From sequence record PV287714.1: DNA of 64,000 nt; one strand, written 5' to 3'. Source of the stretch: Escherichia phage HMD-9. Shown in pieces: positions 13,153-62,271 of this stretch (position 1 is its first letter; every line of letters starts with the position of its first letter). Made by a program: the position numbers and the translations under genes. The notes beneath the pieces are model-generated. The model ran no database searches, was not told the origin of the DNA, and saw only the letters and a list, made by a program, of their open reading frames with translations.

Positions 13153-13165
13153 AATATTTCCTCAG

Positions 13166-13173
13166 TATAAATA
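13166..13173 (+). promoter_or_regulatory. late promoter TATAAATA upstream of seg endonuclease gene
   Basis: Exact TATAAATA 28 nt upstream of ATG 13202. Confidence 0.55.
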
Positions 13174-13201
13174 TAGATATATTTATTACTCGGAAAATAG
13201 T

Positions 13202-13819: not shown

Positions 13820-13821
13820 TT

Positions 13822-15330
13822 ATGGATATTAAAGTACATTTTCACGACTTCAGTCATGTACGCATCGATTGTGAAGAGAGCACGTTCCACGAATTAAGAG
13901 ATTTCTTTTCGTTTGAGGCCGATGGATATAGGTTTAATCCTCGCTTCAGATATGGCAACTGGGATGGACGAATCCGTCTTTTAGATTATAATCGCCTTCT
14001 TCCATTCGGCTTAGTCGGGCAAATTAAAAAGTTCTGTGATAACTTTGGCTATAAAGCTTGGATTGACCCACAGATTAACGAAAAAGAAGAATTATCAAGA
14101 AAAGATTTTGATGAATGGCTTTCTAAATTAGAAATCTATTCAGGAAATAAAAGAATTGAACCGCATTGGTATCAAAAAGATGCAGTGTTCGAAGGATTAG
14201 TTAATCGTCGTAGAATTCTTAATCTTCCAACATCCGCAGGTAAATCCTTAATTCAAGCTTTGCTTGCTCGTTATTATTTGGAAAATTATGAAGGTAAAAT
14301 TCTTATCATTGTTCCAACAACTGCTCTGACAACTCAGATGGCTGATGACTTTGTTGACTATCGTTTATTCAGTCATGCAATGATAAAGAAAATTGGCGGT
14401 GGAGCATCAAAAGATGATAAATATAAAAATGATGCACCAGTCGTTGTTGGTACATGGCAAACTGTAGTAAAACAGCCAAAAGAATGGTTCTCACAGTTTG
14501 GAATGATGATGAATGATGAATGCCATCTTGCTACAGGAAAAAGTATTTCATCTATCATATCAGGTTTAAATAACTGCATGTTTAAATTTGGTTTGTCCGG
14601 TTCATTGCGTGATGGCAAAGCTAATATCATGCAGTATGTTGGAATGTTTGGTGAAATATTTAAGCCAGTAACGACTTCTAAATTAATGGAAGATGGACAA
14701 GTAACTGAGTTAAAAATTAATAGTATTTTTCTTCGCTATCCCGATGAGTTCACTACTAAATTAAAGGGAAAAACTTACCAAGAAGAAATAAAAATTATTA
14801 CTGGACTCAGTAAAAGAAATAAATGGATCGCTAAATTAGCTATTAAGCTTGCGCAAAAAGATGAAAACGCTTTTGTCATGTTTAAACACGTATCACACGG
14901 TAAAGCTATTTTCGATTTAATTAAAAATGAATACGATAAAGTTTATTACGTATCAGGGGAAGTTGATACCGAAACACGCAACGTAATGAAAACCTTAGCT
15001 GAAAACGGTAAAGGAATAATTATAGTAGCTAGTTATGGTGTATTTTCTACTGGTATTTCAGTTAAAAATCTGCATCACGTTGTTTTAGCACACGGTGTTA
15101 AATCTAAAATTATTGTATTGCAAACAATAGGTCGCGTATTACGTAAGCATGGTTCTAAAACAATCGCAACGGTCTGGGACCTCATAGATGATTGCGGTGT
15201 TAAGCCAAAATCTGCTAATACGAAAAAGAAATATGTTCATTTGAACTATCTTTTAAAACACGGCATTGATCGTATTCAGCGCTACGCAGATGAAAAATTT
15301 AATTACGTAATGAAAACAGTTAATTTATAA
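13822..15330 (+). CDS. uvsW: UvsW RNA-DNA/DNA-DNA helicase
   Basis: 502-aa ORF with Walker A (PTSAGKS) and DECH box (MMMNDECH); size/position as T4 UvsW. Confidence 0.9.
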   Translation: MDIKVHFHDFSHVRIDCEESTFHELRDFFSFEADGYRFNPRFRYGNWDGRIRLLDYNRLLPFGLVGQIKKFCDNFGYKAWIDPQINEKEELSRKDFDEWLSKLEIYSGNKRIEPHWYQKDAVFEGLVNRRRILNLPTSAGKSLIQALLARYYLENYEGKILIIVPTTALTTQMADDFVDYRLFSHAMIKKIGGGASKDDKYKNDAPVVVGTWQTVVKQPKEWFSQFGMMMNDECHLATGKSISSIISGLNNCMFKFGLSGSLRDGKANIMQYVGMFGEIFKPVTTSKLMEDGQVTELKINSIFLRYPDEFTTKLKGKTYQEEIKIITGLSKRNKWIAKLAIKLAQKDENAFVMFKHVSHGKAIFDLIKNEYDKVYYVSGEVDTETRNVMKTLAENGKGIIIVASYGVFSTGISVKNLHHVVLAHGVKSKIIVLQTIGRVLRKHGSKTIATVWDLIDDCGVKPKSANTKKKYVHLNYLLKHGIDRIQRYADEKFNYVMKTVNL

Positions 15331-34925: not shown

Positions 34926-35114
34926 AAGTTTTCCATGGTAAAGGTAGTTTAGTTTTCTTTACTGTTAGTTCAATATCAGGATTCTTTTCTCTTAATTTAA
35001 GGCATTCCTCCCAAGCTCTTATTTCACTAGTGAATACACAAAATTGCCCATTACTAGTACCAACTAAACCGCTATTTACAATAACAATAGACCAAGTTTC
35101 ATGATGCCAAGCCA

Positions 35115-35115
<1 letters not shown>
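34918..35115 (-). CDS. hypothetical small protein
   Basis: 65-aa ORF. Confidence 0.45.
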
Positions 35116-36333
<1,218 letters not shown>

Positions 36334-39383: not shown

Positions 39384-40562
39384 TTAAAAGTATTTTTTAA
39401 AACTCATCATAACTTTATCATCAACATCATTATCAATCTGTGCTACAAGATAAGATGACAGTTCTACTTCTTGCGGTGCAGATTGAACATTATCAGAATT
39501 AAGATATTCACGAATCCAAGGATACGGATGTTTAACCGGAGCATCGGTAATTGGACATGGAAGACCACACTGTTTCATACGAGATACAGTTAAGTAATCA
39601 ATAAAGCTCCACATGCTATTTGTATTTAATCCAGGAACATCGCCATCTTTAAATAAATGAACTGCCCAATCTTTTTCTTGGCGGTTAACTTCCATGAAAA
39701 TATCAACTGCTTCTTGTTCACACTCTTGAGCAATTTTAACCCATTCATCGCCATCAGTACCGGATTGAAGTTGACGAATAATATATTGAGTGCCTTTAAG
39801 GTGAAGCTGCTCATCACGAGCAATGAACTTCATAATCTTGGCATTACCTTCCATGATTTCCATGTTTTTGTGGAAGTTAAATGTACAGGCGAAAGATACA
39901 TAAAAACGAATAGCTTCCAATGCGTTGATTACATGAAGGCAGAGGTAAAGAGATTTCATTAGCGCTCGTTTAGCTTCGGCTTCTTGTTTAATAGCTCGAT
40001 TTAAACGAAAATCAGCATCAGGAGATTCTTTAGCTAGTTCTACGAATTCTTTAGCATTTTCCCATTCACGGGTCTTCTTAAGAACATCATCGTAGTAGCG
40101 ACCAATGGACTCGGCACGTTTCATAATATCTTCATCTAATACAATCTCATCAAATACCTTTGACGGATCAGTATAAAGATTTCGCATAATATGAGTGTAT
40201 GAACGACTGTGAATAGTTTCGCTAAAAGTCCATGTAGCAACCCATGTATCAAGACTTGGGTCTGAAATTAACGACATAAGTACAGCAGACGGTGCACGAC
40301 CCTGAATGCTATCTAGAAGTGATTGATACTTCAGGTTATTAGTAAAAATATCTTGCTGATACTGAGGAAGCTTGTTAAATTGTGCAGCATCCATCATCAA
40401 GTTTACTTCTTCCGGACGCCAGAAAAATGACAAAGACTTCTCAATAAGTTCTTCAAATACTCGATGCCGTTGAATATCATATCGAGCTAAACCCAATCCA
40501 GAACCAAAAAACATCGGCTCAGTCAAAATATTAACAGGTGATGTATTAAAAACAGTACTCAT
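39384..40562 (-). CDS. nrdB: ribonucleotide reductase small (R2) subunit, uninterrupted
   Basis: 392-aa continuous ORF with no intron-like interruption. Confidence 0.93.
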   Translation of the reverse strand: MSTVFNTSPVNILTEPMFFGSGLGLARYDIQRHRVFEELIEKSLSFFWRPEEVNLMMDAAQFNKLPQYQQDIFTNNLKYQSLLDSIQGRAPSAVLMSLISDPSLDTWVATWTFSETIHSRSYTHIMRNLYTDPSKVFDEIVLDEDIMKRAESIGRYYDDVLKKTREWENAKEFVELAKESPDADFRLNRAIKQEAEAKRALMKSLYLCLHVINALEAIRFYVSFACTFNFHKNMEIMEGNAKIMKFIARDEQLHLKGTQYIIRQLQSGTDGDEWVKIAQECEQEAVDIFMEVNRQEKDWAVHLFKDGDVPGLNTNSMWSFIDYLTVSRMKQCGLPCPITDAPVKHPYPWIREYLNSDNVQSAPQEVELSSYLVAQIDNDVDDKVMMSFKKYF

Positions 40563-41200
40563 TTAGAATCCTTAAATTTACATTTATCATAATGCCATCT
40601 TAAAGCATTACCTTTATTAACTTTCTTTCCACAATGCGGACACGGCGGATACTCTGCACCTTGTTTAGTTCTCAAAGAAATCAAATCGCGGGTTTCTTTA
40701 GTATGAGGAACATCTCTCGTTGGAGAGATTGTACCATACATTGGATTAAGCACGCCGACTTTAGCAGCAGCTATATTCTTTTTAGCTTCTTCAGTTTTAG
40801 GTTTTCTCATGCGAGCTAAATGCTCTTTAGTAAATTTCCTTCCTTTAAGAGCTCTACTTATCTTTTCTCTGGTTTCTATAGAAACTTCACGTCCTATAGC
40901 AGCTCCAGACAAACGTCGTCTACCTAATTCGTATAGTTGAGAAGAAATTTTATATGAGCGATTTTTACCAGTCAAGCACATTAAACCAAAAGCTTTCTTT
41001 AATCCCGGGGTGTCATATATTTTACATAAAAGCCAATGCGCTATAAAATGCTCTCTACCTGTTAATTCAACTAAATTTTCTTTATCATCAGAACCTCCCA
41101 TACATCTAGGGATTATATGATGAGTCTCTTTATATCCTAATAAAGGTTCCCGGGTTTGTGCCCGGGAAATTAAACTGTTATATACGTTTTGATAATTCAT
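40559..41200 (-). mobile_element. mobE: free-standing HNH homing endonuclease (MobE-like) between nrdA and nrdB
   Basis: 213-aa ORF with HNH motif HHIIPRCMGGSDDKENLVELTGREHFIAH and C-terminal CxxC pair; overlaps nrdA stop (TAATG) and nrdB start (ATGA). Confidence 0.75.
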
Positions 41201-43464
41201 TACAATTTACACGCTGCGCAATCTTCAGCTTTTGGAGTTTCTATTTCATAATCATCAGTACCGGAACCATCACGAGTATTATGATAATAGAAGTTTTTAA
41301 TGCCATAATACCATCCGTATAGCATGTCATCAATCATTACAGACATTGGAACCTTTCCTTTTGGAAAAATCTGCGGGTCATAATATGTATTCGCTGAAGC
41401 TGATTGACATACCCATTTAAGCATAATAGCTACCTGCGTAAGATAAGGTTTATTACCTTTCTTAGCTAATTTCCATGTATAATCATATAGGTCTATGTTA
41501 TGTTCAATATTGGGCACGACTTGATTAAAGGAACCCTCTTTTGATTCTTTAACAGAGACTGGTCCGCGTGGAGGCTCGATACCGTTTGTACTGTTGGAAA
41601 CTTGGGAAGATGACTCACATGGCATAAGTGCTGATAATGTGCTATTACGGATGCCAAAGAGCTTAAGGTCTTCCCGCAGCGACGACCAGTCACAAACGTA
41701 TTTTGGAGCTGCGATTTGGTCAATCTTTTTATTGTACCAGTCGATAGGTAATTCGCCTCGAGACCAACGAGTGTCTGAATAATATTCGCAAGGTCCTTTT
41801 TCTTTGGCGAGCTTAATGGATGCTTTAATGAGTCCATACTGTAGTCTCTCAAATAGTTCATGTGTTAAATCGTTAGCATCTTCATAAGAAGCAAAGTTAC
41901 TTGCCAGCCAAGCTGCATAGTTAGTAACACCTACACCAAGATTTCGACGCTTTTTAGCTTTTTCTGCTTCAGGAACTGGATATCCTTGGTAATCCAAAAG
42001 ATTATCAAGAGCGCGAACTTGAACTTCTGCCAATTCATTAATTTTATCTTGGTCTTGCCAATCGAAGTTATCTAACACAAATGCAGATAACGTACACAAT
42101 CCAATTTCGGCATCAGGACTATTCACATCATTTGTTGGAATAGCAATTTCACAACACAAGTTACTCTGACGAATAGGTGCCTTTTCACGAATAAACGGAG
42201 TATAGTTATTCGTATTATCAATGAACTGTACATAAATCCTTGCTGTTCCTGATCGTTCAGTCATGAGCAATTCAAACAGTTCACGGGCTTTAATACGCTT
42301 TTTACGAATATTAGGGTCTTTTTCTGCGGCTTCGTATAATTCACGGAAACGGTCTTGGTCTTTAAAATAAGAATAATAAAGCTCACCACCCATTTCATGT
42401 GGACTGAACAAAGTAATGTAGTCGTTCTTTCCAAAACGTTCCATCATTAGGTCATTCAGCTGGACGCCATAATCCATATGACGGATACGGTTTTCTTCTA
42501 CGCCTTTGTTATTTTTCAAAACGAGAAGATTTTCAACTTCCAAATGCCAAATAGGATAATAAGCAGTAGCAGCGCCGCCACGAATTCCACCCTGTGAGCA
42601 TGATTTAACAGCAGTCTGAAAATGTTTCCAAAAAGGAATAACACCAGTATGACGTACTTCACCTGTACCAATCTTAGAACCTTCGGCACGAATCATACCA
42701 ACGTTAATACCAATTCCAGCGCGTTTGGAGATATATTCAACAATTGAAGCGGAAGCCTTGTTGATAGACTTCAGCGAATCACCCGCCTCAATAACAACGC
42801 ATGAACTAAACTGCCGAGTTGGAGTACGGCAACCAGCCATAATAGGAGTTGGTAATGAAATCTGTCGAGTAGATACTGCTTCATAAAAACGAATAACGTG
42901 TTTTAGTCTATCAACAGGTTCATCTTGATGCAATGCCATTCCAATAGTCATAAATGCAAACTGTGGAGTTTCATAAATTTGACCAGTGGTTTTATCTTTA
43001 ACTAGATATTTTTCTTTTAATTGCATCGCCCCGGAATAAGTAAATTCCATATCCCGCTCATGCTTAATTTTTGATTCTAAAAATGTAATTTCTTCTGCTG
43101 AATATTTTGACAGCAGTTCAGGGTCATATTTACCTTCATTTACACAGTAAGAAATATGGTCAATAAATGAACGGGGCTCATACTGCCCGTAAACATGCTT
43201 ACGAAGAGCGAACATTAAACAGCGTGCAGCTACATATTGATAATCAGGCTCTTCAACTGAAATAGAATTCGCAGCAGCCTTAATTACAATGGTTTGAATG
43301 TCATCAGTGGTCATTCCATCACGGAGATATGATTTAATATTTTCATATAATTCATAAGGATCTACAGATGTTCCTTCAGCTGCCCAAGATAAAACTTTAA
43401 TAATTTTTTGCGGGTCAAAGCTCTGAGAAACACCACTACTTTTGATAACATTAATTAATTGCAT
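41200..43464 (-). CDS. nrdA: ribonucleotide reductase large (R1) subunit
   Basis: 754-aa ORF; size as T4 NrdA. Confidence 0.95.
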   Translation of the reverse strand: MQLINVIKSSGVSQSFDPQKIIKVLSWAAEGTSVDPYELYENIKSYLRDGMTTDDIQTIVIKAAANSISVEEPDYQYVAARCLMFALRKHVYGQYEPRSFIDHISYCVNEGKYDPELLSKYSAEEITFLESKIKHERDMEFTYSGAMQLKEKYLVKDKTTGQIYETPQFAFMTIGMALHQDEPVDRLKHVIRFYEAVSTRQISLPTPIMAGCRTPTRQFSSCVVIEAGDSLKSINKASASIVEYISKRAGIGINVGMIRAEGSKIGTGEVRHTGVIPFWKHFQTAVKSCSQGGIRGGAATAYYPIWHLEVENLLVLKNNKGVEENRIRHMDYGVQLNDLMMERFGKNDYITLFSPHEMGGELYYSYFKDQDRFRELYEAAEKDPNIRKKRIKARELFELLMTERSGTARIYVQFIDNTNNYTPFIREKAPIRQSNLCCEIAIPTNDVNSPDAEIGLCTLSAFVLDNFDWQDQDKINELAEVQVRALDNLLDYQGYPVPEAEKAKKRRNLGVGVTNYAAWLASNFASYEDANDLTHELFERLQYGLIKASIKLAKEKGPCEYYSDTRWSRGELPIDWYNKKIDQIAAPKYVCDWSSLREDLKLFGIRNSTLSALMPCESSSQVSNSTNGIEPPRGPVSVKESKEGSFNQVVPNIEHNIDLYDYTWKLAKKGNKPYLTQVAIMLKWVCQSASANTYYDPQIFPKGKVPMSVMIDDMLYGWYYGIKNFYYHNTRDGSGTDDYEIETPKAEDCAACKL

Positions 43465-43998: not shown

Positions 43999-44021
43999 AT
44001 ATCCTCACAATTAATAATTAA

Positions 44022-44333
44022 TTACACCGCCATTTTTCCTTTAATAGGAGGGTGTGATTCGTAACCTTTAAGAACGAAATCTTTAGGCCTGAGTTTAAGA
44101 ATGTATTCCAATTGTTCTTTAGTAGAAAGATAACGGAATTTATAAGGCAATCCGCCTATTACCAGTTCACAAAGCTCTTTAGGTTCACGACGCAAAATTT
44201 CTTTACATTGTTCTACGTGATTCATATAGATATGAGTATTACCGCCAGAAAATATCAAATCTCCTGGAATAAGATTACACATCTTAGCTACAATATGAAC
44301 CAACGCAGCATATGATGCAATGTTGAATGGAAG
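44022..44333 (-). CDS. td: thymidylate synthase, exon 2 (103 codons + stop)
   Basis: Begins CTT CCA TTC (LPF...) immediately after intron 3' end ...CATAATG; exon1+exon2 = 286 aa, the T4 TS length. Confidence 0.9.
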   Translation of the reverse strand, partial: LPFNIASYAALVHIVAKMCNLIPGDLIFSGGNTHIYMNHVEQCKEILRREPKELCELVIGGLPYKFRYLSTKEQLEYILKLRPKDFVLKGYESHPPIKGKMAV

Positions 44334-44587
44334 CATTATGTTCAGATAAGGTCGTTAATCTTATCCCGGAATTATATCCAGCTGCATGTCACCATACAGA
44401 TCAGACTATATCTCCATCTTGATGAAGCAAGATGTCTATCGTTTCGAGTCACTTGACCCTACTCCCCAAAGGGATAGTCGTTAGGCATTTAGTTCAAAAG
44501 AACATTTAGCACGGGATTGTCTACTAGAGAGGTTCCCCGTTTAGATAGATTACAAGTATAAGTCACCTTATACTCAGGCCTCAATTA
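44334..44587 (-). ncRNA. group I self-splicing intron in td, 254 nt, without a homing-endonuclease ORF
   Basis: Minus-strand sequence TAATTGAGGCCTGAGTATAAGGTGACTTATAC...GGATATAATTCCGGGATAAGATTAACGACCTTATCTGAACATAATG matches the T4 td intron ends as recalled; where T4 carries the I-TevI loop there is only GTTCTTTTGAAC. Confidence 0.8.
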
Positions 44588-45136
44588 ACCCAAGAAAACA
44601 TCTACACTTCTTTGGTACCATTGTAAATCAAGATAACCATTACGCACATTAAACTGATAGAACATATGACAGGGCGGTAATGCCATTTGATTGATTTCAG
44701 CTGGATTCCATGCTGAAACGATTTGACGTCGATCAGTTGGTAATTTTTTAATACGATCAATAGTTTCAACTAATTGATCCACACCACCGAAATCACGCCA
44801 TTGTTTACCGTATATAGGACCAAGTTCACCACTATGATATCCTAGGTCTTTAGCCTGGTTTTCATAGTTATCGTCCCAAATAGTTTTACCTTGAATAAGA
44901 CTACCATGAGTGCGAAGACGTAAATCATTAACATTGGTAGAACCGGAAATAAACCATAGAAGCTCAGCAATGCAAGCTTTCCAAGCGAGCTTCTTAGTCG
45001 TTACTGCAGGAAAACCTTTAGTTAAATCCCAGCGTAATTTAGTACCGAACAAAGCAATTGTTCCTGTGCCTGTTCGGTCATCGGTTTCATAGCCATTTTC
45101 AAAAATGTCTTTAATTAAATCTTGGTATTGTTTCAT
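44588..45136 (-). CDS. td: thymidylate synthase, exon 1 (183 codons)
   Basis: MKQYQDLIKDIFENGYE... ending ...VDVFLG at the 5' splice site; in-frame TAA lies in the intron. Confidence 0.9.
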
Positions 45137-50754: not shown

Positions 50755-53700
50755 ATGGCCGAGATTAAAAGAAAGTTCAGAGCAGAAGATGGTCTGGACG
50801 CAGGTGGCGATAAAATAATCAACGTAGCTTTAGCTGATCGTACCGTAGGAACTGACGGTGTCAACGTTGATTACTTAATTCAAGAAAACACAGTTCAACA
50901 ATACGATCCAACTCGTGGATATTTAAAAGATTTTGTAATCATTTATGATAACCGCTTTTGGGCTGCTATAAATGATATTCCAAAACCAGCAGGAGCTTTT
51001 AATAGCGTACGCTGGAGAGCATTACGTACTGATGCTAATTGGACAACTGTTTCATCAGGACCTTATCAATTAAAGTCAGGCGAATCAATTTCAGTTGATA
51101 CTGCAGCCGGTAATGACATTACATTTACTTTACCATCTTCCCCAATTGATGGAGATACTATCGTTCTCCAAGACATTGGAGGAAAACCTGGAGTTAACCA
51201 AGTTTTAATTGTAGCTCCAGTACAAAGTATTGTAAACTTTAGAGGCGAACAAGTACGTTCAGTACTAATGACTCATCCAAAATCGCAGATAGTTTTAATT
51301 TTTAGTAATCGTCTGTGGCAAATGTATGTAGCTGATTATAGCAGAGAAGCTGCAGTTGTAACACCGGCAAGTCTTTATCAGGCGCAATCTAACGATTTTA
51401 TCGTGCGTAGATTTACTTCCGCTGCGCCGATTAATATTAAACTTCCGAGATTTGCTAATCATGGCGATATTATTAATTTCGTCGATTTAGATAAACTAAA
51501 TCCGCTTTATCATACAATTGTTACTACATACGATGAAACGACTTCAATACAAGAAGTTGGAACTCATTCCATTGAAGGCCGTACAACGATTGACGGTTTC
51601 TTGATGTATGATGATAATGAAAAATTATGGAGACTGTTTGACGGGGATAGTAAAGCACGTTTACGTATTATAACGACTAATTCAAACATTCGCCCAAATG
51701 AAGAAGTTATGGTATTTGGAGCGAATAACGGAACAACCCAAACAATTGAACTTCAGCTTCCAACTGATATTTCTATTGGTGATACTGTTAAAATTTCCAT
51801 GAATTACATGAGAAAAGGCCAAACAGTTAAAATCAAAGCTGCTGGTGAAGATAAAATTGCTTCTTCAGTTCAATTGCTGCAATTCCCAAAACGTTCAGAG
51901 TATCCGCCTGAAACTAAATGGGTGACTGTTCAAGAATTAGTTTTTAACGGCGAAACTAATTATGTTCCAGTTTTACAGCTTGCTTATATAGAAGATTCTG
52001 ATGGAAAATACTGGGTTGTACAACAAAACGTTCCAACTGTAGAAAGAGTTGATTCTTTAAATGATTCTACTAGAGCAAGATTAGGCGTAATAGCTTTAGC
52101 TACACAAGCTCAAGCAAATGCTGATTTAGAAAATTCTCCGCAAAAAGAATTAGCAATTACACCAGAAACATTAGCTAACCGTACTGCTACAGAAACTCGT
52201 AGAGGTATCGCAAGAATAGCAACTACTGCTCAAGTGAATCAGAACACCACATTCTCTTTTGCTGATGATATTATCATCACTCCTAAAAAGCTGAATGAAA
52301 GAACTGCCACAGAAACTCGTAGAGGCGTTGCTGAAATTGCTACGCAGCAGGAAACTAATGCAGGTACTGATGATACTACAATCATCACTCCTAAAAAGCT
52401 TCAAGCTAGACAAGGTTCTGAATCATTATCTGGTATTGTAACCTTTGTATCTACCGCAGGAGCTACTCCAGCTTCTAGTCGTGAATTAAATGGTACAAAC
52501 GTTTATAATAAAAACACTAATAATTTAGTTGTTTCGCCTAAAGCTTTGGATCAGTATAAAGCTACTCCAACCCAACAAGGTGCAGTAATTTTAGCAGTTG
52601 AAAGTGAAGTAATTGCTGGACAAAGCCAAGAAGGATGGGCAAATGCGGTTGTAACGCCAGAAACGTTACATAAAAAGACATCAACTGATGGAAGAATTGG
52701 TTTAATTGAAATTGCTACGCAAAGTGAAGTTAATACTGGAACTGATTATACTCGTGCAGTCACTCCTAAAACTTTAAATGATCGTAAAGCAACTGAAAGT
52801 TTAAGTGGTATAGCTGAAATTGCTACACAAGTTGAATTCGACGCAGGCGTCGACGATACTCGTATCTCTACACCATTAAAAATTAAAACTAGATTTAATA
52901 GTACTGATCGTACTTCTGTTGTTGCTCTATCTGGATTAGTTGAATCAGGAACTCTCTGGGACCATTATACCCTTAATATTCTTGAAGCAAATGAGACACA
53001 GCGTGGTACACTTCGCGTAGCTACACAAGTTGAAGCTGCTGCAGGAAAATTAGATAATGTTTTAATAACTCCTAAAAAGCTTTTAGGTACTAAATCTACT
53101 GAAGCACAGGAAGGTGTTATTAAAGTTGCAACCCAGTCTGAAACTGTGACTGGAACATCAGCAAATACTGCTGTATCTCCAAAAAATTTAAAGTGGATTG
53201 TGCAGAGTGAACCTACCTGGGCAGCTACTACTGCGGTAAGAGGTTTTGTTAAAACTTCATCTGGTTCAATTACGTTCGTTGGTAATGATACGGTAGGTTC
53301 AACACAGCCATTAGAATCATATGAGAAAAATAGCTATGCGGTATCACCATATGAATTAAACCGTGTATTAGCAAATTATTTGCCGTTAAAAGCAAAAGCT
53401 GCTGATACAAATTTATTGGATGGTCTAGATTCATCTCAGTTCATTCGTAGGGATATTGCACAGACGGTTAATGGTTCACTAACCTTAACCCAGCAAACGA
53501 ATCTGAGTGCCCCTCTTGTATCATCTAGTACTGGTGAATTTGGTGGTTCTTTAGCTGCTAATAGAACATTTACCATCCGTAATACCGGACTCCCGACCAA
53601 TATCATTTTCGAAAAAGGTCCTGCAACCGGTTCAAACCCGGTTCAGTCAATGAGCATCCGTGTATGGGGTAACCAGTATGGCGGCGGCTCGGATACGACT

Positions 53701-54624
53701 CGTTCTACCGTATTTGAAGTTGGTGATGAAACGTCTAATCACTTTTATTCTCAACGTAATAAAGACGGGAATATAACGTTTAGCATTAATGGTACTGTGA
53801 TGCCAAAAAATGTAACTGCTTCGGGTATGTTGAATGTGAATGGCGCTGCAGCATTCGGTAGTTCAGTTAATGTAACCGGCGAAATTATTTCCAGAAATAC
53901 AAACGCTTTCCGCGCTATCAGTAGCCAATACGGGTTCTTTATTCGTAATGATAGCTCTAATGTCTATTTTATGCTGACCGATCAAGGCGATCAGACTGGT
54001 GGATATAATGCATTACGTCCTTTAACCATTAATAATGCATCTGGTCAAGTAACGATTGGTGAAAGCTTAATTATTGCCAAAGGTGCAACTATTAACTCAG
54101 GTGGTTTAACTGTTAACTCGAGAATTCGTTCTCAAGGCACTAAAACATCTAATTTATATACTCGTGCACCAACATCTGATACTGTAGGATTCTGGTCAAT
54201 CGATGTTAATGATTCAGCTACTTATAACCAGTTCCCAGGTTATTTTAAAATGGTTGAAAAAACTAATGAAGTGACTGGGCTTCCATACTTAGAACGTGGC
54301 GAAGAAGTTAAATCTCCTGGTACACTGACTCAGTTTGGTAATACACTTGATTCGCTTTACCAAGATTGGATTACTTATCCAACGACGCCAGAAGCGCGTA
54401 CCACTCGCTGGACCCGTACATGGCAGAAAACCAAAAACTCTTGGTCAAGTTTTGTTCAGGTATTTGATGGAGGTAACCCTCCTCAGCCATCTGATATCGG
54501 TGCTTTACCATCTGATAATGCTATAATGGGGAATCTTACTATTCGTGATTTCTTACGAATTGGTAATGTTCGCATTGTTCCTGACCCAGTGAATAAATCT
54601 GTTAAATTTGAATGGATTGAATAA
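50755..54624 (+). CDS. 34: long tail fibre proximal subunit
   Basis: 1289-aa ORF; size as T4 gp34. Confidence 0.95.
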   Translation: MAEIKRKFRAEDGLDAGGDKIINVALADRTVGTDGVNVDYLIQENTVQQYDPTRGYLKDFVIIYDNRFWAAINDIPKPAGAFNSVRWRALRTDANWTTVSSGPYQLKSGESISVDTAAGNDITFTLPSSPIDGDTIVLQDIGGKPGVNQVLIVAPVQSIVNFRGEQVRSVLMTHPKSQIVLIFSNRLWQMYVADYSREAAVVTPASLYQAQSNDFIVRRFTSAAPINIKLPRFANHGDIINFVDLDKLNPLYHTIVTTYDETTSIQEVGTHSIEGRTTIDGFLMYDDNEKLWRLFDGDSKARLRIITTNSNIRPNEEVMVFGANNGTTQTIELQLPTDISIGDTVKISMNYMRKGQTVKIKAAGEDKIASSVQLLQFPKRSEYPPETKWVTVQELVFNGETNYVPVLQLAYIEDSDGKYWVVQQNVPTVERVDSLNDSTRARLGVIALATQAQANADLENSPQKELAITPETLANRTATETRRGIARIATTAQVNQNTTFSFADDIIITPKKLNERTATETRRGVAEIATQQETNAGTDDTTIITPKKLQARQGSESLSGIVTFVSTAGATPASSRELNGTNVYNKNTNNLVVSPKALDQYKATPTQQGAVILAVESEVIAGQSQEGWANAVVTPETLHKKTSTDGRIGLIEIATQSEVNTGTDYTRAVTPKTLNDRKATESLSGIAEIATQVEFDAGVDDTRISTPLKIKTRFNSTDRTSVVALSGLVESGTLWDHYTLNILEANETQRGTLRVATQVEAAAGKLDNVLITPKKLLGTKSTEAQEGVIKVATQSETVTGTSANTAVSPKNLKWIVQSEPTWAATTAVRGFVKTSSGSITFVGNDTVGSTQPLESYEKNSYAVSPYELNRVLANYLPLKAKAADTNLLDGLDSSQFIRRDIAQTVNGSLTLTQQTNLSAPLVSSSTGEFGGSLAANRTFTIRNTGLPTNIIFEKGPATGSNPVQSMSIRVWGNQYGGGSDTTRSTVFEVGDETSNHFYSQRNKDGNITFSINGTVMPKNVTASGMLNVNGAAAFGSSVNVTGEIISRNTNAFRAISSQYGFFIRNDSSNVYFMLTDQGDQTGGYNALRPLTINNASGQVTIGESLIIAKGATINSGGLTVNSRIRSQGTKTSNLYTRAPTSDTVGFWSIDVNDSATYNQFPGYFKMVEKTNEVTGLPYLERGEEVKSPGTLTQFGNTLDSLYQDWITYPTTPEARTTRWTRTWQKTKNSWSSFVQVFDGGNPPQPSDIGALPSDNAIMGNLTIRDFLRIGNVRIVPDPVNKSVKFEWIE

Positions 54625-54632: not shown

Positions 54633-55748
54633 ATGGAAAAATTTATGGCAGAGTTTGGACAAGGATATGTCCAAACGCCATTTTTATCGGAAAGTAATTC
54701 AGTAAGATACAAAATAAGCATAGCGGGTTCTTGCCCGCTTTCTACAGCAGGACCATACGTTAAATTTCAGGATAATCCTATCGGAAATCAAACATTTAGC
54801 GCAGGCCTTCATTTAAGAGTTTTTGACCCTTCAACAGGAGCATTAGTTGATAGTAAGTCATATGCTTTTTCGACTTCAAATGATACTACATCAGCTGCTT
54901 TTGTCAGTTTCATGAATTCTTTTTCAAACAACAGACTTGTTGCTATATTAACCAGTGGAAAGGTTAATTTTCCTCCTGAAGTGGTATCTTGGTTAAGGGG
55001 AGCAGGAACGTCTGCTTTTCCATCAGATTCAGTATTGTCAAGATTTGACGTATCATATGCTGCTTTTTACACTTCTTCTAAAAGAGCTATTGCATTAGAA
55101 CATGTTAAACTGAGTAATAGAAAAAGCACAGATGACTATCAAACTATTTTAGATGTTGTATTTGACAGTTTAGAAGACGTTGGAGCTACGGGATTTCCTA
55201 AAAGAACATATGAAAGCGTTGAGCAATTTATGTCAGCGGTTGGCGGAACCAATAACGAAATTGCGCGATTGCCAACTTCAGCTGCTATAAGTAAACTCTC
55301 TGATTATAATTTAATTCCTGGCGATGTTCTTTATCTTAAAGCTCAGTTATATGCCGATGCAGATTTACTTGCGCTTGGAACTACAAATATATCTATCCGT
55401 TTTTATAATGCATCGAATGGATATATTTCCTCTACCCAAGCTGAGTTTACTGGACAAGCTGGGTCTTGGGAATTAAAGGAAGATTATGTAGTTGTTCCTG
55501 AAAATGCAGTCGGATTTACTATATATGCGCAGAGAACTGCTCAAGCTGGTCAAGGCGGAATGAGGAATTTAAGCTTTTCTGAAGTATCAAGAAATGGCGG
55601 CATTTCAAAACCTGCCGAATTTGGCGTCAACGGTATTCGCGTTAATTATGTCTGTGAATCGGCTTCACCTCCAGATATAATGGTACTTCCTACACAAGCC
55701 TCTTCTAAAACTGGCAAAGTGTTTGGGCAAGAATTTAGAGAAGTTTAA
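54633..55748 (+). CDS. 35: long tail fibre hinge (knee) protein
   Basis: 371-aa ORF; size/position as T4 gp35. Confidence 0.9.
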   Translation: MEKFMAEFGQGYVQTPFLSESNSVRYKISIAGSCPLSTAGPYVKFQDNPIGNQTFSAGLHLRVFDPSTGALVDSKSYAFSTSNDTTSAAFVSFMNSFSNNRLVAILTSGKVNFPPEVVSWLRGAGTSAFPSDSVLSRFDVSYAAFYTSSKRAIALEHVKLSNRKSTDDYQTILDVVFDSLEDVGATGFPKRTYESVEQFMSAVGGTNNEIARLPTSAAISKLSDYNLIPGDVLYLKAQLYADADLLALGTTNISIRFYNASNGYISSTQAEFTGQAGSWELKEDYVVVPENAVGFTIYAQRTAQAGQGGMRNLSFSEVSRNGGISKPAEFGVNGIRVNYVCESASPPDIMVLPTQASSKTGKVFGQEFREV

Positions 55749-55753: not shown

Positions 55754-55780
55754 GGGAGCCTTCGGGTTCCCTTTTTCTTT
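55754..55780 (+). terminator. rho-independent terminator after gene 35
   Basis: GGGAGCC-TTCG-GGTTCCC hairpin followed by TTTTTCTTT. Confidence 0.7.
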
Positions 55781-55787
55781 ATAAATA
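55780..55787 (+). promoter_or_regulatory. late promoter TATAAATA (gene 36)
   Basis: Exact TATAAATA 23 nt upstream of gene 36 ATG. Confidence 0.65.
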
Positions 55788-55810: not shown

Positions 55811-56500
55811 ATGGCTGATTTAAAAGTAGGTTCAACTGTGGGTGGATCTGTCATTTGGCATCAAGGAAATTTTCCATTGAATTCAGCCGGTGACGATGTA
55901 CTCTATAAATCATTTAAAATATATTCAGAATATAATAAACCGCAGGCAGCTGATAACGATTTCGTTTCTAAAGCTAATGGTGGCACAAAGTCTCAAGGTT
56001 TCCAAAAAGAAGTAGAATTTAAAGAAGGCGTTAAGATTTCTGCAACGTTTTCTGGAGGTTCAGACCTGAATGGGTTATATTCTGGCAATGGAGATGGAGC
56101 TTCCAGAGAAAAAGCTAACATGGATTTACGTTCATGGTACGGCATTGGTATTTGGAACACATGCACAAGTGATGGGATACAGGGACGCACAATCTGGTTT
56201 AATGCCAGGAGTGGTAAAGTTGAAACAGTTGGCAATATTGTTTCTGGCCAACAAGTTATTTCTAATGCTTCAGGACCGACCGCCCCGGCACACTTAACTC
56301 GCAAAGATTATGTTGATGGAGCAATAAATATTGTTACAGCAAACGCAAACTCTAGGGTATTACGCTCTGGAGATACTATGACAGGAAATTTAACTGCGCC
56401 AAACCTTTTTTCACAGAATCCTGCATCTCAACCCTCACATGTTCCACGATTTGATCAAATTGTTATTAAGGATTCTGTTCAAGATTTCGGCTATTATTAA
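55811..56500 (+). CDS. 36: long tail fibre distal connector
   Basis: 229-aa ORF; position as T4 gp36. Confidence 0.9.
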   Translation: MADLKVGSTVGGSVIWHQGNFPLNSAGDDVLYKSFKIYSEYNKPQAADNDFVSKANGGTKSQGFQKEVEFKEGVKISATFSGGSDLNGLYSGNGDGASREKANMDLRSWYGIGIWNTCTSDGIQGRTIWFNARSGKVETVGNIVSGQQVISNASGPTAPAHLTRKDYVDGAINIVTANANSRVLRSGDTMTGNLTAPNLFSQNPASQPSHVPRFDQIVIKDSVQDFGYY

Positions 56501-56508: not shown

Positions 56509-59500
56509 ATGGCTACTTTAAAACAAATACAATTTAAAAGAAGCAAAACTGCAGGAGCACGTCCTGCCGCTTCAGTATTAGCCGAAGGTGAATTGGCTAT
56601 AAACTTAAAAGACCGTGTACTTTTTACTAAAGACGATCAAGGGAATATCATTGATCTGGGTTTTGCTAAGGGCGGTAGTATTGACGGGAATGTTATTCAT
56701 AACGGTAACTACAACCAGACTGGCGATTACACTATAACCGGAGCTATTTCACAAAAGTCTGGACATTTTACTACTACCGGTAGTATAACAGCAACCGGTG
56801 ATGTCACAGCAAAATCTCGCCTAATGACTGATATAGGCGAAGTTTTGGTACGTAGTAATGGTACCGCACATGTTCGATTCCAGGATTTGGCTGATGGACG
56901 CGAAAGAGCTATAATTTATTCTCAAAACCGTACTGGGAATACCAAGCAAATATTGAACGTTCGTGTTCAGGATTACACTAATTCAACATCTAATACTTTT
57001 GCATTCAACGGTGACGGTTTATTTTATGCCCCATCTATTTCCGGCGGAACATCAGTAAAATCTCCAGTAATTTATACCAATACTGTTAATACAGACAGTA
57101 AGAATATTGGCGATTACGATATATCTTCATTAGCAAATAACACTCCATTGGCAGAAAGCGAAACGGCTATTAACCACCTCCGTGTTATGCGAAATGCTGT
57201 AGGATCTGGTATATTCCATGAAGTTAAAGATAATGATGGAATAACTTGGTATACCGGAGATGGCTTAGACACTTATCTTTGGTCGTTTACCTGGTCTGGT
57301 GGATTGAAAGCGGGTCATTCTATTTCTGTTGGTACTCCTGGTGGCAATAAAGGATACTCTGAATTAGGGACTGCTTCAATTTCTCTTGGTGATAATGATA
57401 CCGGGCTAAAATGGCATCAGGATGGATATTTCCAAACAGTAAACAACGGGACAAGAACTTTCACCTATGGCCCTACCGAAACACAAAGCCTTAGAAAAAT
57501 GGTTATGGGTTATTCTCCGGACGGGATTCTTATGACAACGCCGCCGACAGAAAACTATGCATTAGCCACTGTTGTTACTTATCATGATAATAACGCGTAT
57601 GGTGACGGTCAGACTCTTTTAGGATATTATCAAGGCGGTAATTATCATCACTATTTCCGCGGTAAGGGTACCACAAACATTAATACTCATGGCGGTTTGT
57701 TAGTTACTCCAGGTGATATTAATGTTATCGGTGGTTCGGTTAATATCGATGGTATAAATAATTCTTCTACCCTGCTATTTAGAGGCAACACGACCGGAGC
57801 TAGTTCAGTTGATAATATGACAATTTCCGTTTGGGGCAATACGTTTACTAATCCTAGTGTAGGTAATCGTAAAAACGTCATGGAAATTTCTGATGCAACT
57901 AGCTGGATGAGCTATATTCAAAGACTTACAACTGGTGAAGTAGAAATGAACGTTAACGGTTCATTTGAATCATCTGGTGTTACTGCTGGACATAGAGGAG
58001 TTCACACAACAGGCGAAATTTCATCCGGAGCAGTGAATGCGCTTCGCATTTGGAATGCAGATTATGGAGTCATTTTCCGTCGTTCAGAAAACAGTCTTCA
58101 TATTATTCCGACTGCTTACGGTGAAGGTAAAAATGGAAATATCGGTCCACTTCGCCCGTTCCGTATGGACCTTGATACAGGTAAAGTAAGTATTCCTAAT
58201 ATGGATACTACTAATTTGATTATGAACCCAAATGGTTCTATTAAATTTACTGGTCATGGTAATGGTACCGAGCTGTATGGTAATCAGTATGGGCAAGCGG
58301 CACCGATTTATCAAGAAATTAATAATGATTCCGCTTCTGCTTATATTCCAATTATAAAACAGAAATACTTAAATGGCGGTATAATGTGGTCTATGGGAAC
58401 AGAACTTAATTCCGGTGATTTTGTAATCCATAGAATTAATGCCGCCGGTGATGAAAACCGAATTATTAAATTTGATAGTAACTGCGTTCCGCATTTCCCG
58501 GATAACGTGCTGGTTGGCGGTGATATTAACATGAAAGGCGCGATGACTTTTGACGCCGGACGTTTAGGATCACGAGATTATTTTAAATTTAACCATTGGG
58601 GTGATAGTAATAATGCTCGTGATAACATCATCCAGTTAGAAGATAGTCAAGGCGCTCATTTTTCCACTGAACGTACTTTAGCGACTGGTGCAATTAAAAC
58701 TCGTTTCTTTGGCGAAACATTTACTGATGGTACATTATACCTAAATCAGATGAATAATAGCTCTGAACGATTCTCTATCAGAAATTGGGGAAATTCAGAA
58801 GTTGGTCGCGCGGCAGTGATGGAAGTCGGTGATTCCAAAGGTTATCACTTCTATACGGAACGCAGGACAGATAATAGTTTGGCGTTTGATGTTGCTGGCG
58901 TTTTTACCGTGCATGGACCTACCGGGATCACTATCAAAAACTCTGCTGGTGCACGACATATCTGGTTTAGAGATGATAGCGATGCAGAAAAGTCTGTTAT
59001 CTGGGCTACAGATGAGGGTATTTTACATATTCGCAATAACTATGGTGGAGCAGTTGCACATCGCTTCCAGGGCGCGATGTTTAAACTTAACGGACGTGTT
59101 CCTTATGCCGCAGATCAAGGAATTATTCGTGGTGAGGTTTCTGGCGGTGCTTATGTGGATTGGAGAAATCGCCCTGCTGGTTTGTTGCTTGACTGTCAAC
59201 AAAGCGTTGATAGTGCTCATGCCATTTGGAAAGCGGTTGATTGGGGGCGTAACTACATCGCTGCTTTGGATGTTCATATGCCAGGTAATAGTAATAATAC
59301 TGCAGCAGCGATTCTCCATGTTCAAGATGCTAATTATCAATTCCATGCAAGTGGAGAATTTCATGCCACTGGTAACGGAAGCTTTAACGATGTTTATATT
59401 CGATCAGACCGTCGCCTCAAAGAAAACATCGAAGATTATATAGGAAATGCAACTGATTTAATCGGTAAACTGAAAGTTAAAACCTACGATAAAGTTAAAT

Positions 59501-59757
59501 CATTATCCGACCGTGAAATTATCGGTCATGAGATTGGCATTATCGCACAGGATTTACAAGAAATATTACCAGAAGCGATTAATATTTCGAAAATTGGCAA
59601 TCTTGATAAACCAGACGAAGTTCTGACAATTTCTAACTCTGCTGTGAATGCTCTTTTAATTAAGGCCATTCAGGAAATGAGTGAAGAAATTAAAGAATTG
59701 AAAACGCCTTTCTTCACTAAAATTGCTCGCAAAATTGGTAAATACTTTAAATTCTAA
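56509..59757 (+). CDS. 37: long tail fibre distal subunit with C-terminal intramolecular-chaperone (S74-like) domain
   Basis: 1082-aa ORF; last ~120 aa contain the [14 protein letters not shown] autoprocessing-type motif. Confidence 0.93.
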
Positions 59758-59761
59758 TAAC

Positions 59762-59780
59762 AAGGGGCATTGCCCCTTTG
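59762..59780 (+). terminator. hairpin after gene 37
   Basis: GGGGC-ATT-GCCCC then TTTGG. Confidence 0.45.
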
Positions 59781-59789
59781 GAGATAATT

Positions 59790-60569
59790 ATGTCAGTAGT
59801 TGGTGTTCCTGGTTGGATTGGTAGTTCATCCGTAAATGAAACAGGACAACGATGGATGAGTCAAGCGGCTGGTCAATTAAGATTAGGTGTTCCTTGCTGG
59901 ATGAGTCAATTTGCAGGTCGCTCAAGAGAAATTATTCACACACTTGGAGCAGACCATAACTTCAATGGTCAATGGTTCCGAGATAGATGTTTTGAGGCAG
60001 GTAGTACACCTATAGTGTTTAATATCACTGGAGATTTAGTATCATATTCTAAAGATGTTCCTTTATTCTTCATGTACGGAGATACACCGAATGAATATGT
60101 TCAGTTGAATATACATGGCGTAACGATGTATGGTCGTGGCGGGAATGGCGGTAGCAATAGTCCCGGATCGGCTGGGGGTCATTGTATTCAAAATGATATT
60201 GGTGGAAGACTAAGAATTAATAATGGCGGAGCTATTGCAGGCGGCGGTGGCGGTGGCGGCGGCGGTAACTACGGTAGACTATCATTTGGTGGTGGTGGTG
60301 GTCGCCCATTCGGTGCTGGCGGGTCTTCCTCTCATATGGGTGCTGGTGCAACCGCTGGCACCATTTCCGCTCCGGGTGCAGGATCTGTCGGTGAGGGGTC
60401 TCTTTGGGTATATACAGGCGGGAATGGCGGTGAAGTTGGCTCAGCAGGAGGTAGATGTAATATTCATGGGAACGGTACAGAATATAACGGTGGTGCTGCT
60501 GGTTATGCCGTCATAGGGTCTACACCGACATGGCAAAACGTTGGAGCAATATATGGTCCAAGAGTATAA
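59790..60569 (+). CDS. 38: T2-type receptor-recognising adhesin with glycine-rich motifs
   Basis: ORF-track start is TTG; ATG with GGAG RBS gives 259 aa; runs such as GGGGGGGGGN, GGGGG and GGNGG separated by short variable segments. Confidence 0.88.
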
Positions 60570-60599
60570 TTTGAATAAATATCCTTAAAAGGAGGGTCT

Positions 60600-61256
60600 A
60601 TGGCAGCACCTAGAATATCATTTTCGCCCTCTGATATTCTATTTGGTGTTCTAGATCGCTTGTTCAAAGATAACGCTACCGGGAAGGTTCTTGCTTCCCG
60701 AGTAGCTGTCGTAATTCTTTTGTTTATAATGGCGATTGTTTGGTATAGGGGAGATAGTTTCTTTGAGTACTATAAGCAATCAAAGTATGAAACATACAGT
60801 GAAATTATTGAAAAGGAAAGAAATGCACGCTTTGAATCTGTCGCCCTGGAACAACTCCAGATAGTTCATATATCATCTGAGGCAGACTTTAGTGCGGTGT
60901 ATTCTTTCCGCCCTAAAAACTTAAACTATTTTGTTGATATTATAGCATATGAAGGAAAATTACCTTCAACAATAAGCGAAAAATCACTTGGAGGATATCC
61001 TGTTGATAAAACTATGGATGAATATACAGTTCATTTAAATGGACGTCATTATTATTCCGACTCAAAATTTGCTTTTTTACCAACTAAAAAGCCTACTCCC
61101 GAAATAAATTACATGTACAGTTGTCCATATTTCAATTTGGATAATATCTATGCTGGAACAATAACCATGTACTGGTATAGAAATGATCATATAAGTAATG
61201 ACCGCCTTGAATCAATATGTTCCCAGGCGGCCAGAATATTAGGAAGGGCTAAATAA
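60600..61256 (+). CDS. t: holin and lysis-inhibition sensor
   Basis: 218-aa ORF with one N-terminal TM helix and large periplasmic domain; size as T4 T. Confidence 0.92.
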   Translation: MAAPRISFSPSDILFGVLDRLFKDNATGKVLASRVAVVILLFIMAIVWYRGDSFFEYYKQSKYETYSEIIEKERNARFESVALEQLQIVHISSEADFSAVYSFRPKNLNYFVDIIAYEGKLPSTISEKSLGGYPVDKTMDEYTVHLNGRHYYSDSKFAFLPTKKPTPEINYMYSCPYFNLDNIYAGTITMYWYRNDHISNDRLESICSQAARILGRAK

Positions 61257-62052: not shown

Positions 62053-62271
62053 TTATGTTTTGCGACTAAATTGTTCATAGTGCTGAATTACCTCTCTTAA
62101 ACATTTGCATGTGAATGAAAACTTTTTAGCTACACCACATTCAAATATATGTTCTCTTAAATCACTTGTATCAGTATATCCCATCTCAACGATAAAATGC
62201 CGTATTAGATTTTTATCTTTATCATTGAGAGAATTAAAATAATCGGATTTTGAATTAATTTCCCTGGCCAA
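62053..62271 (-). CDS. hypothetical small protein
   Basis: 72-aa ORF. Confidence 0.45.
   Translation of the reverse strand: MAREINSKSDYFNSLNDKDKNLIRHFIVEMGYTDTSDLREHIFECGVAKKFSFTCKCLREVIQHYEQFSRKT

Follow-up and report, generated by a model that had tools for sequence, protein, structure and literature searches.

Genes 37 and 38 of Escherichia phage HMD-9 very probably encode the receptor-recognition module at the distal end of the long tail fibre of a Tequatrovirus (T2/T6 type), with an OmpA-type gp38 adhesin and a recombinant origin. This reading rests on the domains and motifs identified, on the fold of gp38 and its near-identity to an adhesin already characterised, and on the mosaic make-up of the locus, as assessed in a window of 64,000 nucleotides (PV287714.1). 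The T2-type tip architecture is by now textbook knowledge (Henning 1986-87; Trojet 2011; Dunne 2018): it is established that gp37 is processed, that gp38 acts as the adhesin and follows a GRM/HVS plan with a polyglycine sandwich, and that adhesins are exchanged by recombination. The value of the present analysis is one of annotation only: the host-range determinant of HMD-9 is identified and its primary receptor, OmpA, becomes predictable, which is of practical use for phage cocktail design or for foreseeing resistance. Apart from that, the locus is one further case of modular shuffling in T-even tail-fibre tips and opens no new question.

The ORF list and Pfam searches gave the gene order 34-35-36-37-38-t-asiA...motA, of which the part from gene 34 to gene t is common to T2, T6, and their relatives; gene 38 occupies the T2-type position between the end of gene 37 (59757) and the start of gene t (60600) (Table 1). 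A pattern search for late promoters returned 19 matches in the window vs 8.8 expected, including, on the plus strand, one ahead of gene 34 (50713), one ahead of gene 36 (55780), and one within gene 37 (57753); the one at 55780 is the probable promoter of a late 36-37-38 transcript. No terminator-like sites were found in a scan of 59300-60569 in genes 37 and 38. The most likely start of gene 38 is ATG 59790, since this codon lies 6 nt behind a GGAG ribosome-binding site (59780-59783) and fits both residue 1 of Gp38_N and the annotated starts in relatives, whereas the listed ORF with a TTG start (59778-60569, 263 aa) overlaps the GGAG and was discarded. The hairpin at 59762-59778 was also considered as a regulatory RNA and set aside: its folding energy of -12.9 kcal/mol corresponds to a z-score of only -1.5 relative to shuffled sequences, and it is therefore without statistical support, nor was a terminator-like site called there.

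Table 1. Features of the gene 37-38 locus of HMD-9. GRM and HVS boundaries were set by alignment and are approximate.
Feature	Position	Strand	Residues	Remarks
T4-type late-promoter motif	55780..55787	+		TATAAATA; upstream of gene 36; pattern search
Gene 37, distal half-fibre subunit	56509..59757	+	1082 aa	ORF list
gp37 distal tip	59014..59403	+	gp37 aa 836-965	beta-helical; ends in conserved strand DVYIR
Predicted autocleavage site	59401..59406	+	Arg965 / Ser966	motif NDVYIR^SDRRLK
Intramolecular chaperone/autocleavage domain (Peptidase_S74)	59404..59757	+	gp37 aa 966-1082 (117 aa)	stop codon included
37-38 intergenic region	59762..59783	+		small hairpin AAGGGGC-ATT-GCCCCTT, then GGAG
Gene 38, T2-type receptor-recognising adhesin	59790..60569	+	259 aa	Pfam, PDB, AlphaFold2
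gp38 N-terminal attachment domain	59790..59915	+	gp38 aa 1-42	Gp38_N positions 1-40
Specificity region (polyglycine sandwich)	60132..60503	+		alignments A1, A2
GRM1			gp38 aa 115-121	
HVS1			gp38 aa 122-150	
GRM2			gp38 aa 151-159	
HVS2			gp38 aa 160-166	NYGRLSF
GRM3			gp38 aa 167-178	
HVS3			gp38 aa 179-209	
GRM4			gp38 aa 210-221	
HVS4			gp38 aa 222-233	
GRM5			gp38 from aa 234	
Gene t (holin)	60600..61256			directly downstream of gene 38; Phage_holin_T, E 6e-118

The gp37 protein is a patchwork, in which the closest relative changes segment by segment. Residues 1-60 are 100% identical to all five relatives compared and residues 61-330 are at most 71% identical to the same five, the top nucleotide match for the latter segment in the phage collection being MX01 (87.5%). 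Further downstream, residues 421-690 are 98% identical to phage 132 and residues 836-1082 are 98-100% identical to RPN226. For the distal tip, identity is 98% to RPN226 and only 51% to IME340; for the chaperone domain it is 100% to RPN226, 98% to phage 132, and 81% to IME340. The DVYIR strand at the end of the tip is unchanged in the 10 T2-type gp37 proteins aligned, and the S16 gp37 chain from the gp37-gp38 complex (6F45_A) was aligned by phmmer to residues 944-1066. A role of this tip in docking is ascribed to Dunne 2018 in the accounts of that work given in PMC6851490 and PMC7917993.

It had been noted earlier that the gp37 C-terminus resembles the self-cleaving intramolecular chaperone of endosialidase and T5-type fibres. 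This is borne out by a Pfam match to Peptidase_S74 (PF13884; residues 966-1023, 51.1 bits, E 1.6e-13, cut-off 22 bits) at the extreme C-terminus of the 1082-aa fibre protein and by an intact Ser-Lys dyad. The protein strings quoted in the earlier note were all found in the gp37 and gp38 translations; the start that it gave for the block, 59100, corresponds to gp37 residue 864 and lies in the gp38-docking tip, whereas the chaperone domain starts at 59404 and comprises 117 aa. The dyad consists of Ser966 and Lys971, five residues apart in SDRRLK, which is the spacing of S911/K916 in endoNF (PMC8326128). The surrounding motif aligns to the S16 cleavage site DLNVS^SDRRIKK and to the site predicted for fPS phages, DVYIR^SDGRLKI (PMC7917993), and in the alignment of 10 T2-type gp37 proteins (D/N)VYIR^SD.RLK is invariant, including Ser966 and Lys971. 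By analogy, gp37 would be cleaved between Arg965 and Ser966, with the release of a predicted fragment of 117 aa (59404-59754). As cleavage is deduced here from homology, it may be argued that the chaperone domain is retained or inactive in the HMD-9 allele and that gp38 docks in a manner unlike S16. This is very improbable given the invariance of the dyad and the whole cleavage motif across T2-type gp37 proteins, the 100% identity of the domain to that of RPN226, an isolated phage, and the statement by Trojet et al. that T2 and T6 gp37 are processed proteolytically at the C-terminus (PMC3157838).

In the T4-type arrangement, gp38 is a 183-aa chaperone and the needle domain of gp37 binds the receptor. 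Were HMD-9 to have such a tip, gp38 would be an assembly chaperone outside the virion and gp37 would bind the receptor, a proposal in line with the name and position of the gene only and with some records in which homologues carry the name 'distal long tail fiber assembly catalyst'. It is hardly credible, however, for a gp38 of 259 aa with adhesin domains and an adhesin fold. Pfam matches were obtained for GP38 (PF05268; 232.9 bits, E 4.9e-69) and Gp38_N (PF21721; 67.2 bits, E 1.2e-18), each with a cut-off of 25 bits, and the PDB sequences matched were 9V85 (E 5e-78) and 6F45_D (E 4e-53). An AlphaFold2 model of gp38 reached a mean pLDDT of 84.4, with most 10-residue blocks from residue 51 to the end averaging about 87 or more. 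A Foldseek search of this model against the PDB returned 9V85 (TM 0.72-0.84, rmsd 2.0) and 6F45_D (TM 0.77), and beyond these two gp38 structures no significant fold match; the model suggests a beta-helix with a polyglycine-II sandwich. On the gp37 side, PDB sequence matches were limited to domains of gp34 and the gp37 tip of S16, with no T4 gp37 tip entry; that is, the S16 tip and chaperone were matched in place of the T4 needle domain among solved structures, and T2/S16-type tips are characterised by an intramolecular chaperone (IMC) domain whose dyad is intact. The earlier identification of gp38 as a T2-type adhesin, not a T4-type chaperone, is upheld by the Pfam domains, the PDB matches, and the fold.

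[quoted passage not shown] Its N-terminal domain carries the tryptophan prongs W9, W22, and W37, whose role in attachment is known from the S16 structure (PMC6851490). Across 34 diverse gp38 homologues W9 and W22 do not vary, while W37 is invariant in alignment A2, nearly so in A1, and not retained in the most distant homologues. The pLDDT of this domain is low (35-57), as expected because gp38 was modelled without its gp37 partner.

The remainder of gp38 follows the GRM/HVS plan, with blocks of variable sequence between invariant glycine columns in both alignments, A1 and A2. Glycine runs include nine glycines followed by NYG (residues 151-162), GGGGG (167-171), and GGNGG (210-214), and glycine makes up 39% of residues 115-240. 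That the segments between the glycine runs determine specificity, as had been proposed for this protein, agrees with their being the hypervariable columns in both family alignments and with the literature, in which their role in porin specificity was demonstrated experimentally (PMC3157838; bioRxiv 10.64898/2026.04.02.716166). The GC content rises to 0.50-0.52 at 60000-60600, vs 0.35-0.40 in the flanks, with a strongly positive GC skew, probably because this part of the gene is rich in glycine (GGN) codons. The same figures could be taken to mean that a GC-rich gene 38 was recently imported from beyond the T-even gene pool, but this can practically be dismissed: the rise coincides with the GGN-codon part, such composition is intrinsic to the gp38 family, and the close homologues named by organism come from T-even-type enterobacterial phages or enterobacterial records, bar one cluster labelled Bacillus cereus.

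An exact-sequence look-up of gp38 in the assembly collection gave no record; the closest gp38 cluster is 99% identical, and the specificity half is common to IME340, SP1, LYE-01, and JE01. HVS2-4 are 100% identical to those of IME340, SP1, and JE01, and the class with a short HVS2 and a long HVS3 is also found in FL12, FL18, FL20, EV240, Ac3, and BF15. Compared with IME340, 257 of the 259 gp38 residues are identical, including all GRMs and all four HVSs, and the two differences (A2S, A14S) are both in the N-terminal domain. The dependence of IME340 on OmpA was established by sequencing resistant mutants and by deletion, complementation, and adsorption assays (PMC6499177). Given the identity of the HVSs, E. 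coli OmpA is predicted as the receptor of HMD-9 gp38. Several members of the same HVS class point in this direction as well: FL12, FL18, and FL20 depend on OmpA (PMC12032242), and the gp38 of EV240, 95% identical to that of HMD-9, is OmpA-specific, and this specificity was transferred when gp38 was exchanged from HVS2 on. One substitution in an HVS can switch the porin (e.g., Q206L in RB68/RB51), and a receptor call therefore needs near-identity.

A rival to OmpA is Tsx, the receptor of T6 and the commonest predicted gp38 receptor (PMC12032242). Overall, gp38 is 84-87% identical to T6 and 85-88% to the Tsx-dependent FL04, and it has the same HVS1 as T6. Nevertheless, Tsx is a very unlikely target, and the call suggested by whole-protein identity to T6 was dropped after an HVS-by-HVS comparison. 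HVS2 is the short NYGRLSF, vs YYSPF(P/S)QMRLTF in T6 and FL04; HVS3 contains a GEGS(L) insertion that is missing from both; HVS2-4 match OmpA-dependent IME340 exactly, as stated above; and the region from HVS3 to the C-terminus shows 81% identity with T6-like adhesins such as that of RB5 (tblastn with the C-terminal 107 aa as query, of which residues 39-107 aligned). OmpA is thus retained as the predicted receptor, while host range could be modulated by gp37, given its divergence from IME340 in the tip, or by secondary receptors.

A 50-nt mismatch profile, together with per-segment identities, indicated that the closest relative differs between segments of the module. The gp37 tip and chaperone are RPN226-like (98-100%), the gp38 specificity half is IME340/SP1/JE01-like (100%), and over 58600-60700 the best record in the phage collection reaches about 95% identity at most. 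On these similarities, the module appears to be a natural recombinant, in which an RPN226-type gp37 tip and chaperone were joined to the specificity half of an IME340-type gp38. The crossover would have taken place in a conserved stretch, from the 37-38 junction to the N-terminal half of gp38 (about 59750-60250). Of the earlier suggestion that nowhere in the window is horizontal exchange likelier than in this block, the mosaic part is supported and the top rank is not: in a comparison across the window with phage 132 as the one relative, at least six other places were as divergent or more so, and the block is therefore an exchange hot spot but not demonstrably the top one. Tentatively, the module may even be a natural 'plug-and-play' chimera, with an IME340-like OmpA adhesin placed on a gp37 tip that, over the 130 residues preceding the cleavage point, is only 51% identical to the IME340 tip, the two gp37 proteins having in common only the DVYIR strand and the chaperone motif. 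If the phage is viable and OmpA-dependent, this would mean that almost any sequence upstream of the last strand of the tip is compatible with gp38 docking, and that the conserved N-terminal half of gp38 is a natural crossover site for adhesin exchange.

Taken together, the following route of assembly may be envisaged. The gp37 protein would be made as a 1082-aa precursor, whose 117-aa C-terminal chaperone may make the beta-helical tip trimerise and fold, after which the chaperone would cut itself off between Arg965 and Ser966 via the Ser966-Lys971 dyad. Cleavage would expose a tip ending in DVYIR, which presumably carries the gp38 docking surface. One gp38 monomer would then dock on this tip via W9, W22, and W37 of its N-terminal helical bundle, in a predicted 3:1 arrangement, and its beta-helix would bear the polyglycine-II sandwich, the distal loops of which (HVSs) would bind the outer-membrane porin, i.e., OmpA in the case of HMD-9.

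The chaperones of endoNF and T5 pb1 belong to the Peptidase_S74 family and, as here, begin with a Ser-x4-Lys dyad and lie at the C-terminus of a trimeric fibre. Their upstream passenger domains are unrelated to gp37, and processing simply matures the enzyme or fibre, whereas removal of the gp37 domain is thought to uncover the adhesin docking site. The S16 tip (PDB 6F45; Dunne et al. 2018) likewise has a gp37 with a cleavable IMC (S^SDRRIKK vs R^SDRRLKE here) and a gp38 in which a Trp-prong N-domain is combined with a beta-helix and a polyglycine sandwich. However, sequence identity of the gp38 chain is 44% by Foldseek, the HVS loops are unlike those of HMD-9, the gp37 tip has no sequence kinship upstream of the last strand, and the receptor is Salmonella OmpC. 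The best structural match is the receptor-binding domain of PP01 gp38 (PDB 9V85; PMC12892980; rmsd 2.0 A, 61-65% identity), in which the beta-helix and GRMs are conserved but HVS2-4 differ; its receptor is OmpC of E. coli O157. T2 (AP018813) shares the gene order, the IMC motif (NVYIR^SDIRLK), and the GRM/HVS plan, yet its gp38 is only 52% identical, its gp37 has 1341 aa and is about 35% identical beyond the first 60 aa, and its receptor is FadL (PMC3157838). T2 itself is further from the HMD-9 gp38 than the T6/Ac3 lineage is: T6 gp38 hardly differs in its N-terminal domain, beta-helix, and HVS1, although HVS2 is longer, HVS3 is shorter, and the receptor class (Tsx) is another. Lastly, vB_EcoM_IME340 (MH051916) has gene 38 in the same position and nearly the same gp38, and differs in gp37, which is 70% identical overall, with 51% in the tip and 81% in the chaperone domain.

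Pfam assigned the product of gene 38 to GP38 (E 4.9e-69) and Gp38_N (E 1.2e-18), and two solved adhesins were matched, namely 9V85 (E 5e-78), the receptor-binding domain of PP01 gp38 (PMC12892980), and S16 gp38 6F45_D (E 4e-53). TTG 59778, the listed ORF start, was rejected because it overlaps the GGAG at 59780-59783. ATG 59790, the probable start, is located 6 nt downstream of this GGAG, coincides with the first position of the Gp38_N profile, and agrees with the starts annotated in the fetched relatives, giving a gp38 of 259 aa. In alignments with 13-33 homologues, conservation was seen in the central part and in the N-terminal domain, where W9 and W22 are invariant and W37 is mostly conserved; variable blocks alternated with invariant glycine blocks. 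Among PDB structures, an AlphaFold2 model built from a 34-sequence alignment (mean pLDDT 84.4; most 10-residue blocks at about 87 or more from residue 51 onwards) matched only 9V85 (TM 0.72-0.84, rmsd 2.0 Å) and 6F45_D (TM 0.77), all further fold matches having E > 2. As modelled, the fold is of the S16 type, i.e., a β-helix plus polyglycine-sandwich (PMC6851490). The earlier note had read the locus as a T2-type gp37/gp38 module, and this reading is correct, as Pfam, the PDB matches, and the gp38 fold agree. A T4-type arrangement was rejected: gp38 is not a small chaperone, and gp37 gave no match to any T4 gp37 tip structure. One cluster of gp38 proteins (155 members, 89% identity to the window protein) carries the NCBI label 'receptor-recognizing protein [Bacillus cereus]', which almost certainly reflects T-even phage DNA contaminating a bacterial assembly, or a mislabelled record.

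The protein strings that had been quoted from gp37 and gp38 were all found in the translations. In gp37, Pfam Peptidase_S74 ('chaperone of endosialidase') covers aa 966-1023 (E 1.6e-13, 51 bits vs a cut-off of 22), and phmmer aligned aa 944-1066 with the fragment of S16 gp37 that was crystallised in complex with gp38 (6F45). The proposed pairing of a chaperone-ended gp37 with a glycine-rich gp38 is thereby confirmed, but the chaperone domain begins at 59404, not at 59100. When ten T2-type gp37 proteins (window, RPN226, 132, IME340, SP1, JE01, FL12, T2, T6, and FL04) were aligned over their C-terminal 250 aa, the motif (D/N)VYIR-SD.RLK was invariant in all ten and the surrounding tips were very variable. 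The S16 chaperone is autocleaved between both serines of DLNVS^SDRRIKK, and the homologous site in fPS phages is DVYIR^SDGRLKI (PMC7917993). Matching the window motif, NDVYIR|SDRRLKE, to these sites predicts a cut between Arg965 and Ser966, which would release 117 aa (59404-59754). The five-residue spacing of Ser966 and Lys971 equals that of the endoNF catalytic dyad, S911/K916 (PMC8326128); the conserved motif and this spacing together suggest that gp37 is cleaved in the window phage.

At its 3' end, the window covers the junction of the long-tail-fibre and early genes of a T-even phage (ORF list), and megablast placed the window in Tequatrovirus. The phage collection held no record identical to the window; the top match to 40000-64000 showed ~94-95% identity across 93-94% of the length, and that to 58600-60700 was vB_EcoM-RPN226 (95.2%). 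Between the arn and arn.2 homologues, a 72-aa ORF (62053-62271, minus strand) is present; phage 132 and JE01 have an equal-sized ORF (219 nt) there, and T6, T2, SP1, and others small ORFs of other sizes, which makes this position a small variable slot among the early genes. In gp35, the hinge connector of the phage fibre, aa 58-113 (54804-54971) match Pfam ILEI (PF15711; 32.1 bits vs a cut-off of 27, E 1.7e-07), i.e., interleukin-like EMT inducer, a surprising family name for such a protein.

Features of the fibre locus and of the tip proteins (glycine-rich motif, GRM; hypervariable segment, HVS; GRM/HVS limits are approximate)
Feature	Position	Basis or remark
gp34	50755-54624	ORF list
gp35	54633-55748	ORF list
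gp36	55811-56500	Pfam Phage_T4_gp36
gp37	56509-59757	ORF list
gp38	59778/59790-60569	ORF list
holin t	60600-61256	Pfam Phage_holin_T, E 6e-118
asiA to motA	beyond holin t	minus strand
gp37 segment	aa 61-330	<=71% protein identity to any of five relatives compared
gp37 segment	aa 421-690	98% protein identity to phage 132
gp37 segment	aa 836-965	98% protein identity to RPN226, 51% to IME340
gp37 segment	aa 966-1082	100% protein identity to RPN226, 81% to IME340
gp38 GRM1	aa 115-121	
gp38 HVS1	aa 122-150	
gp38 GRM2	aa 151-159	nine Gly
gp38 HVS2	aa 160-166	NYGRLSF
gp38 GRM3	aa 167-178	
gp38 HVS3	aa 179-209	
gp38 GRM4	aa 210-221	
gp38 HVS4	aa 222-233	
gp38 GRM5	from aa 234	

On the + strand, genes 34 and 36 are each closely preceded by a T4-type late-promoter motif (TATAAATA; at 50713 and 55780, respectively). 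Over the whole window, this motif is enriched (19 matches observed vs 8.8 expected). A perfect copy inside gene 37 (57753-57760, + strand) could act as an internal late promoter or have arisen by chance. Given these motifs and no terminator-like site in 59300-60569, the scanned part of genes 37-38, gene 38 probably belongs to a late transcript together with genes 36 and 37. A small 37-38 intergenic hairpin was without statistical support.

Mosaicism was assessed by sliding identity against eight relatives and by a 50-nt mismatch profile. The gp37 tip and chaperone (59000-59750) differ from RPN226 by 0-1 mismatches per 50 nt, vs 11-24 from SP1 (59050-59600). From HVS2 to the end of gp38 (60250-60600), the window is identical to SP1 and JE01 and shows 2-9 mismatches per 50 nt to RPN226, whose place in this comparison phage 132 cannot take, as it gives no alignment here. 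Beyond 60600, identity to every relative compared is 96-100%. Since its segments have differing closest relatives, the tip module is a patchwork, and these profiles place the RPN226-like/IME340-like join inside a conserved region (~59750-60250), consistent with the exchange mechanisms of Trojet et al. (PMC3157838) and with an experimental gp38 swap boundary (bioRxiv 10.64898/2026.04.02.716166). In FL12 (locus 1861-6210), a T2-like gp37 tip, chaperone, and gp38 N-terminus (aa 1-47) occur with an OmpA-type HVS set like that of the window; there, the gp38 attachment domain co-varies with the gp37 tip and the specificity half is exchanged independently. Conservation of gp37 is lowest in its proximal part (aa 61-330; 56689-57498), to which nothing in the phage collection was closely related; the top nucleotide match of this part was MX01 (87.5%), followed by JS98-like phages (~85%), which suggests exchange between genera. 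These JS98-like (Mosigvirus) matches include IME281. Furthermore, gp37 aa 420-563 (57766-58197) match the gp34 C-terminal trimerisation domain (Pfam Gp34_trimer, E 4.5e-08; PDB 4UXE/5NXF, E about 1e-12), indicating a module common to gp34 and gp37 that could be a recombination substrate between tail-fibre genes.

The earlier note had also ranked this block as the most likely exchange site in the window. The locus is indeed mosaic, but other 500-nt bins are as divergent or more so vs phage 132, namely ~13000-14000, 25000-26000, 35000-35500, 40500-41500, 44000-45000, and 53500-54000. These bins, poorly conserved or absent vs phage 132 (window median 96.8% identical positions), are further variable or indel loci. 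On the phage 132 map, they are close to the outer capsid protein gene, the genes for ADP-ribosyltransferases, the nrd region, and the C-terminus of gp34.

Window and IME340 gp38 are identical at 257 of 259 positions, including all GRMs and HVSs; both differences (S2/A, S14/A) are in the attachment domain. The IME340 receptor is OmpA: resistant mutants carry ompA mutations, and on ΔompA cells infection is absent and adsorption reduced, with complementation restoring them (PMC6499177). EV240, whose gp38 is 95% identical to that of the window, is OmpA/HepI-specific by RB-TnSeq, and its gp38 from HVS2 onwards converted a Tsx phage into an OmpA phage (bioRxiv 10.64898/2026.04.02.716166). The short HVS2 and GEGSL-containing HVS3 are common to the window and FL12, FL18, and FL20 (gp38 alignment), which are OmpA-dependent (PMC12032242). 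In contrast, although the Tsx adhesins of T6 and FL04 have the same HVS1 as the window, their HVS2 is longer and their HVS3 shorter. On these grounds, OmpA is predicted with high confidence as receptor of the window phage. This prediction should be read with the caveats that gp12 determines secondary (LPS) receptors and that one HVS substitution can switch the porin (bioRxiv 10.64898/2026.04.02.716166).

Taken together, the tip module is real, correctly interpreted, and a textbook feature of an already known kind of system, and its gp38 allele is already characterised via a 99%-identical protein. New here are only the OmpA prediction, the exact list of parts, and the pairing of this gp38 adhesin with a gp37 tip very unlike that of IME340.
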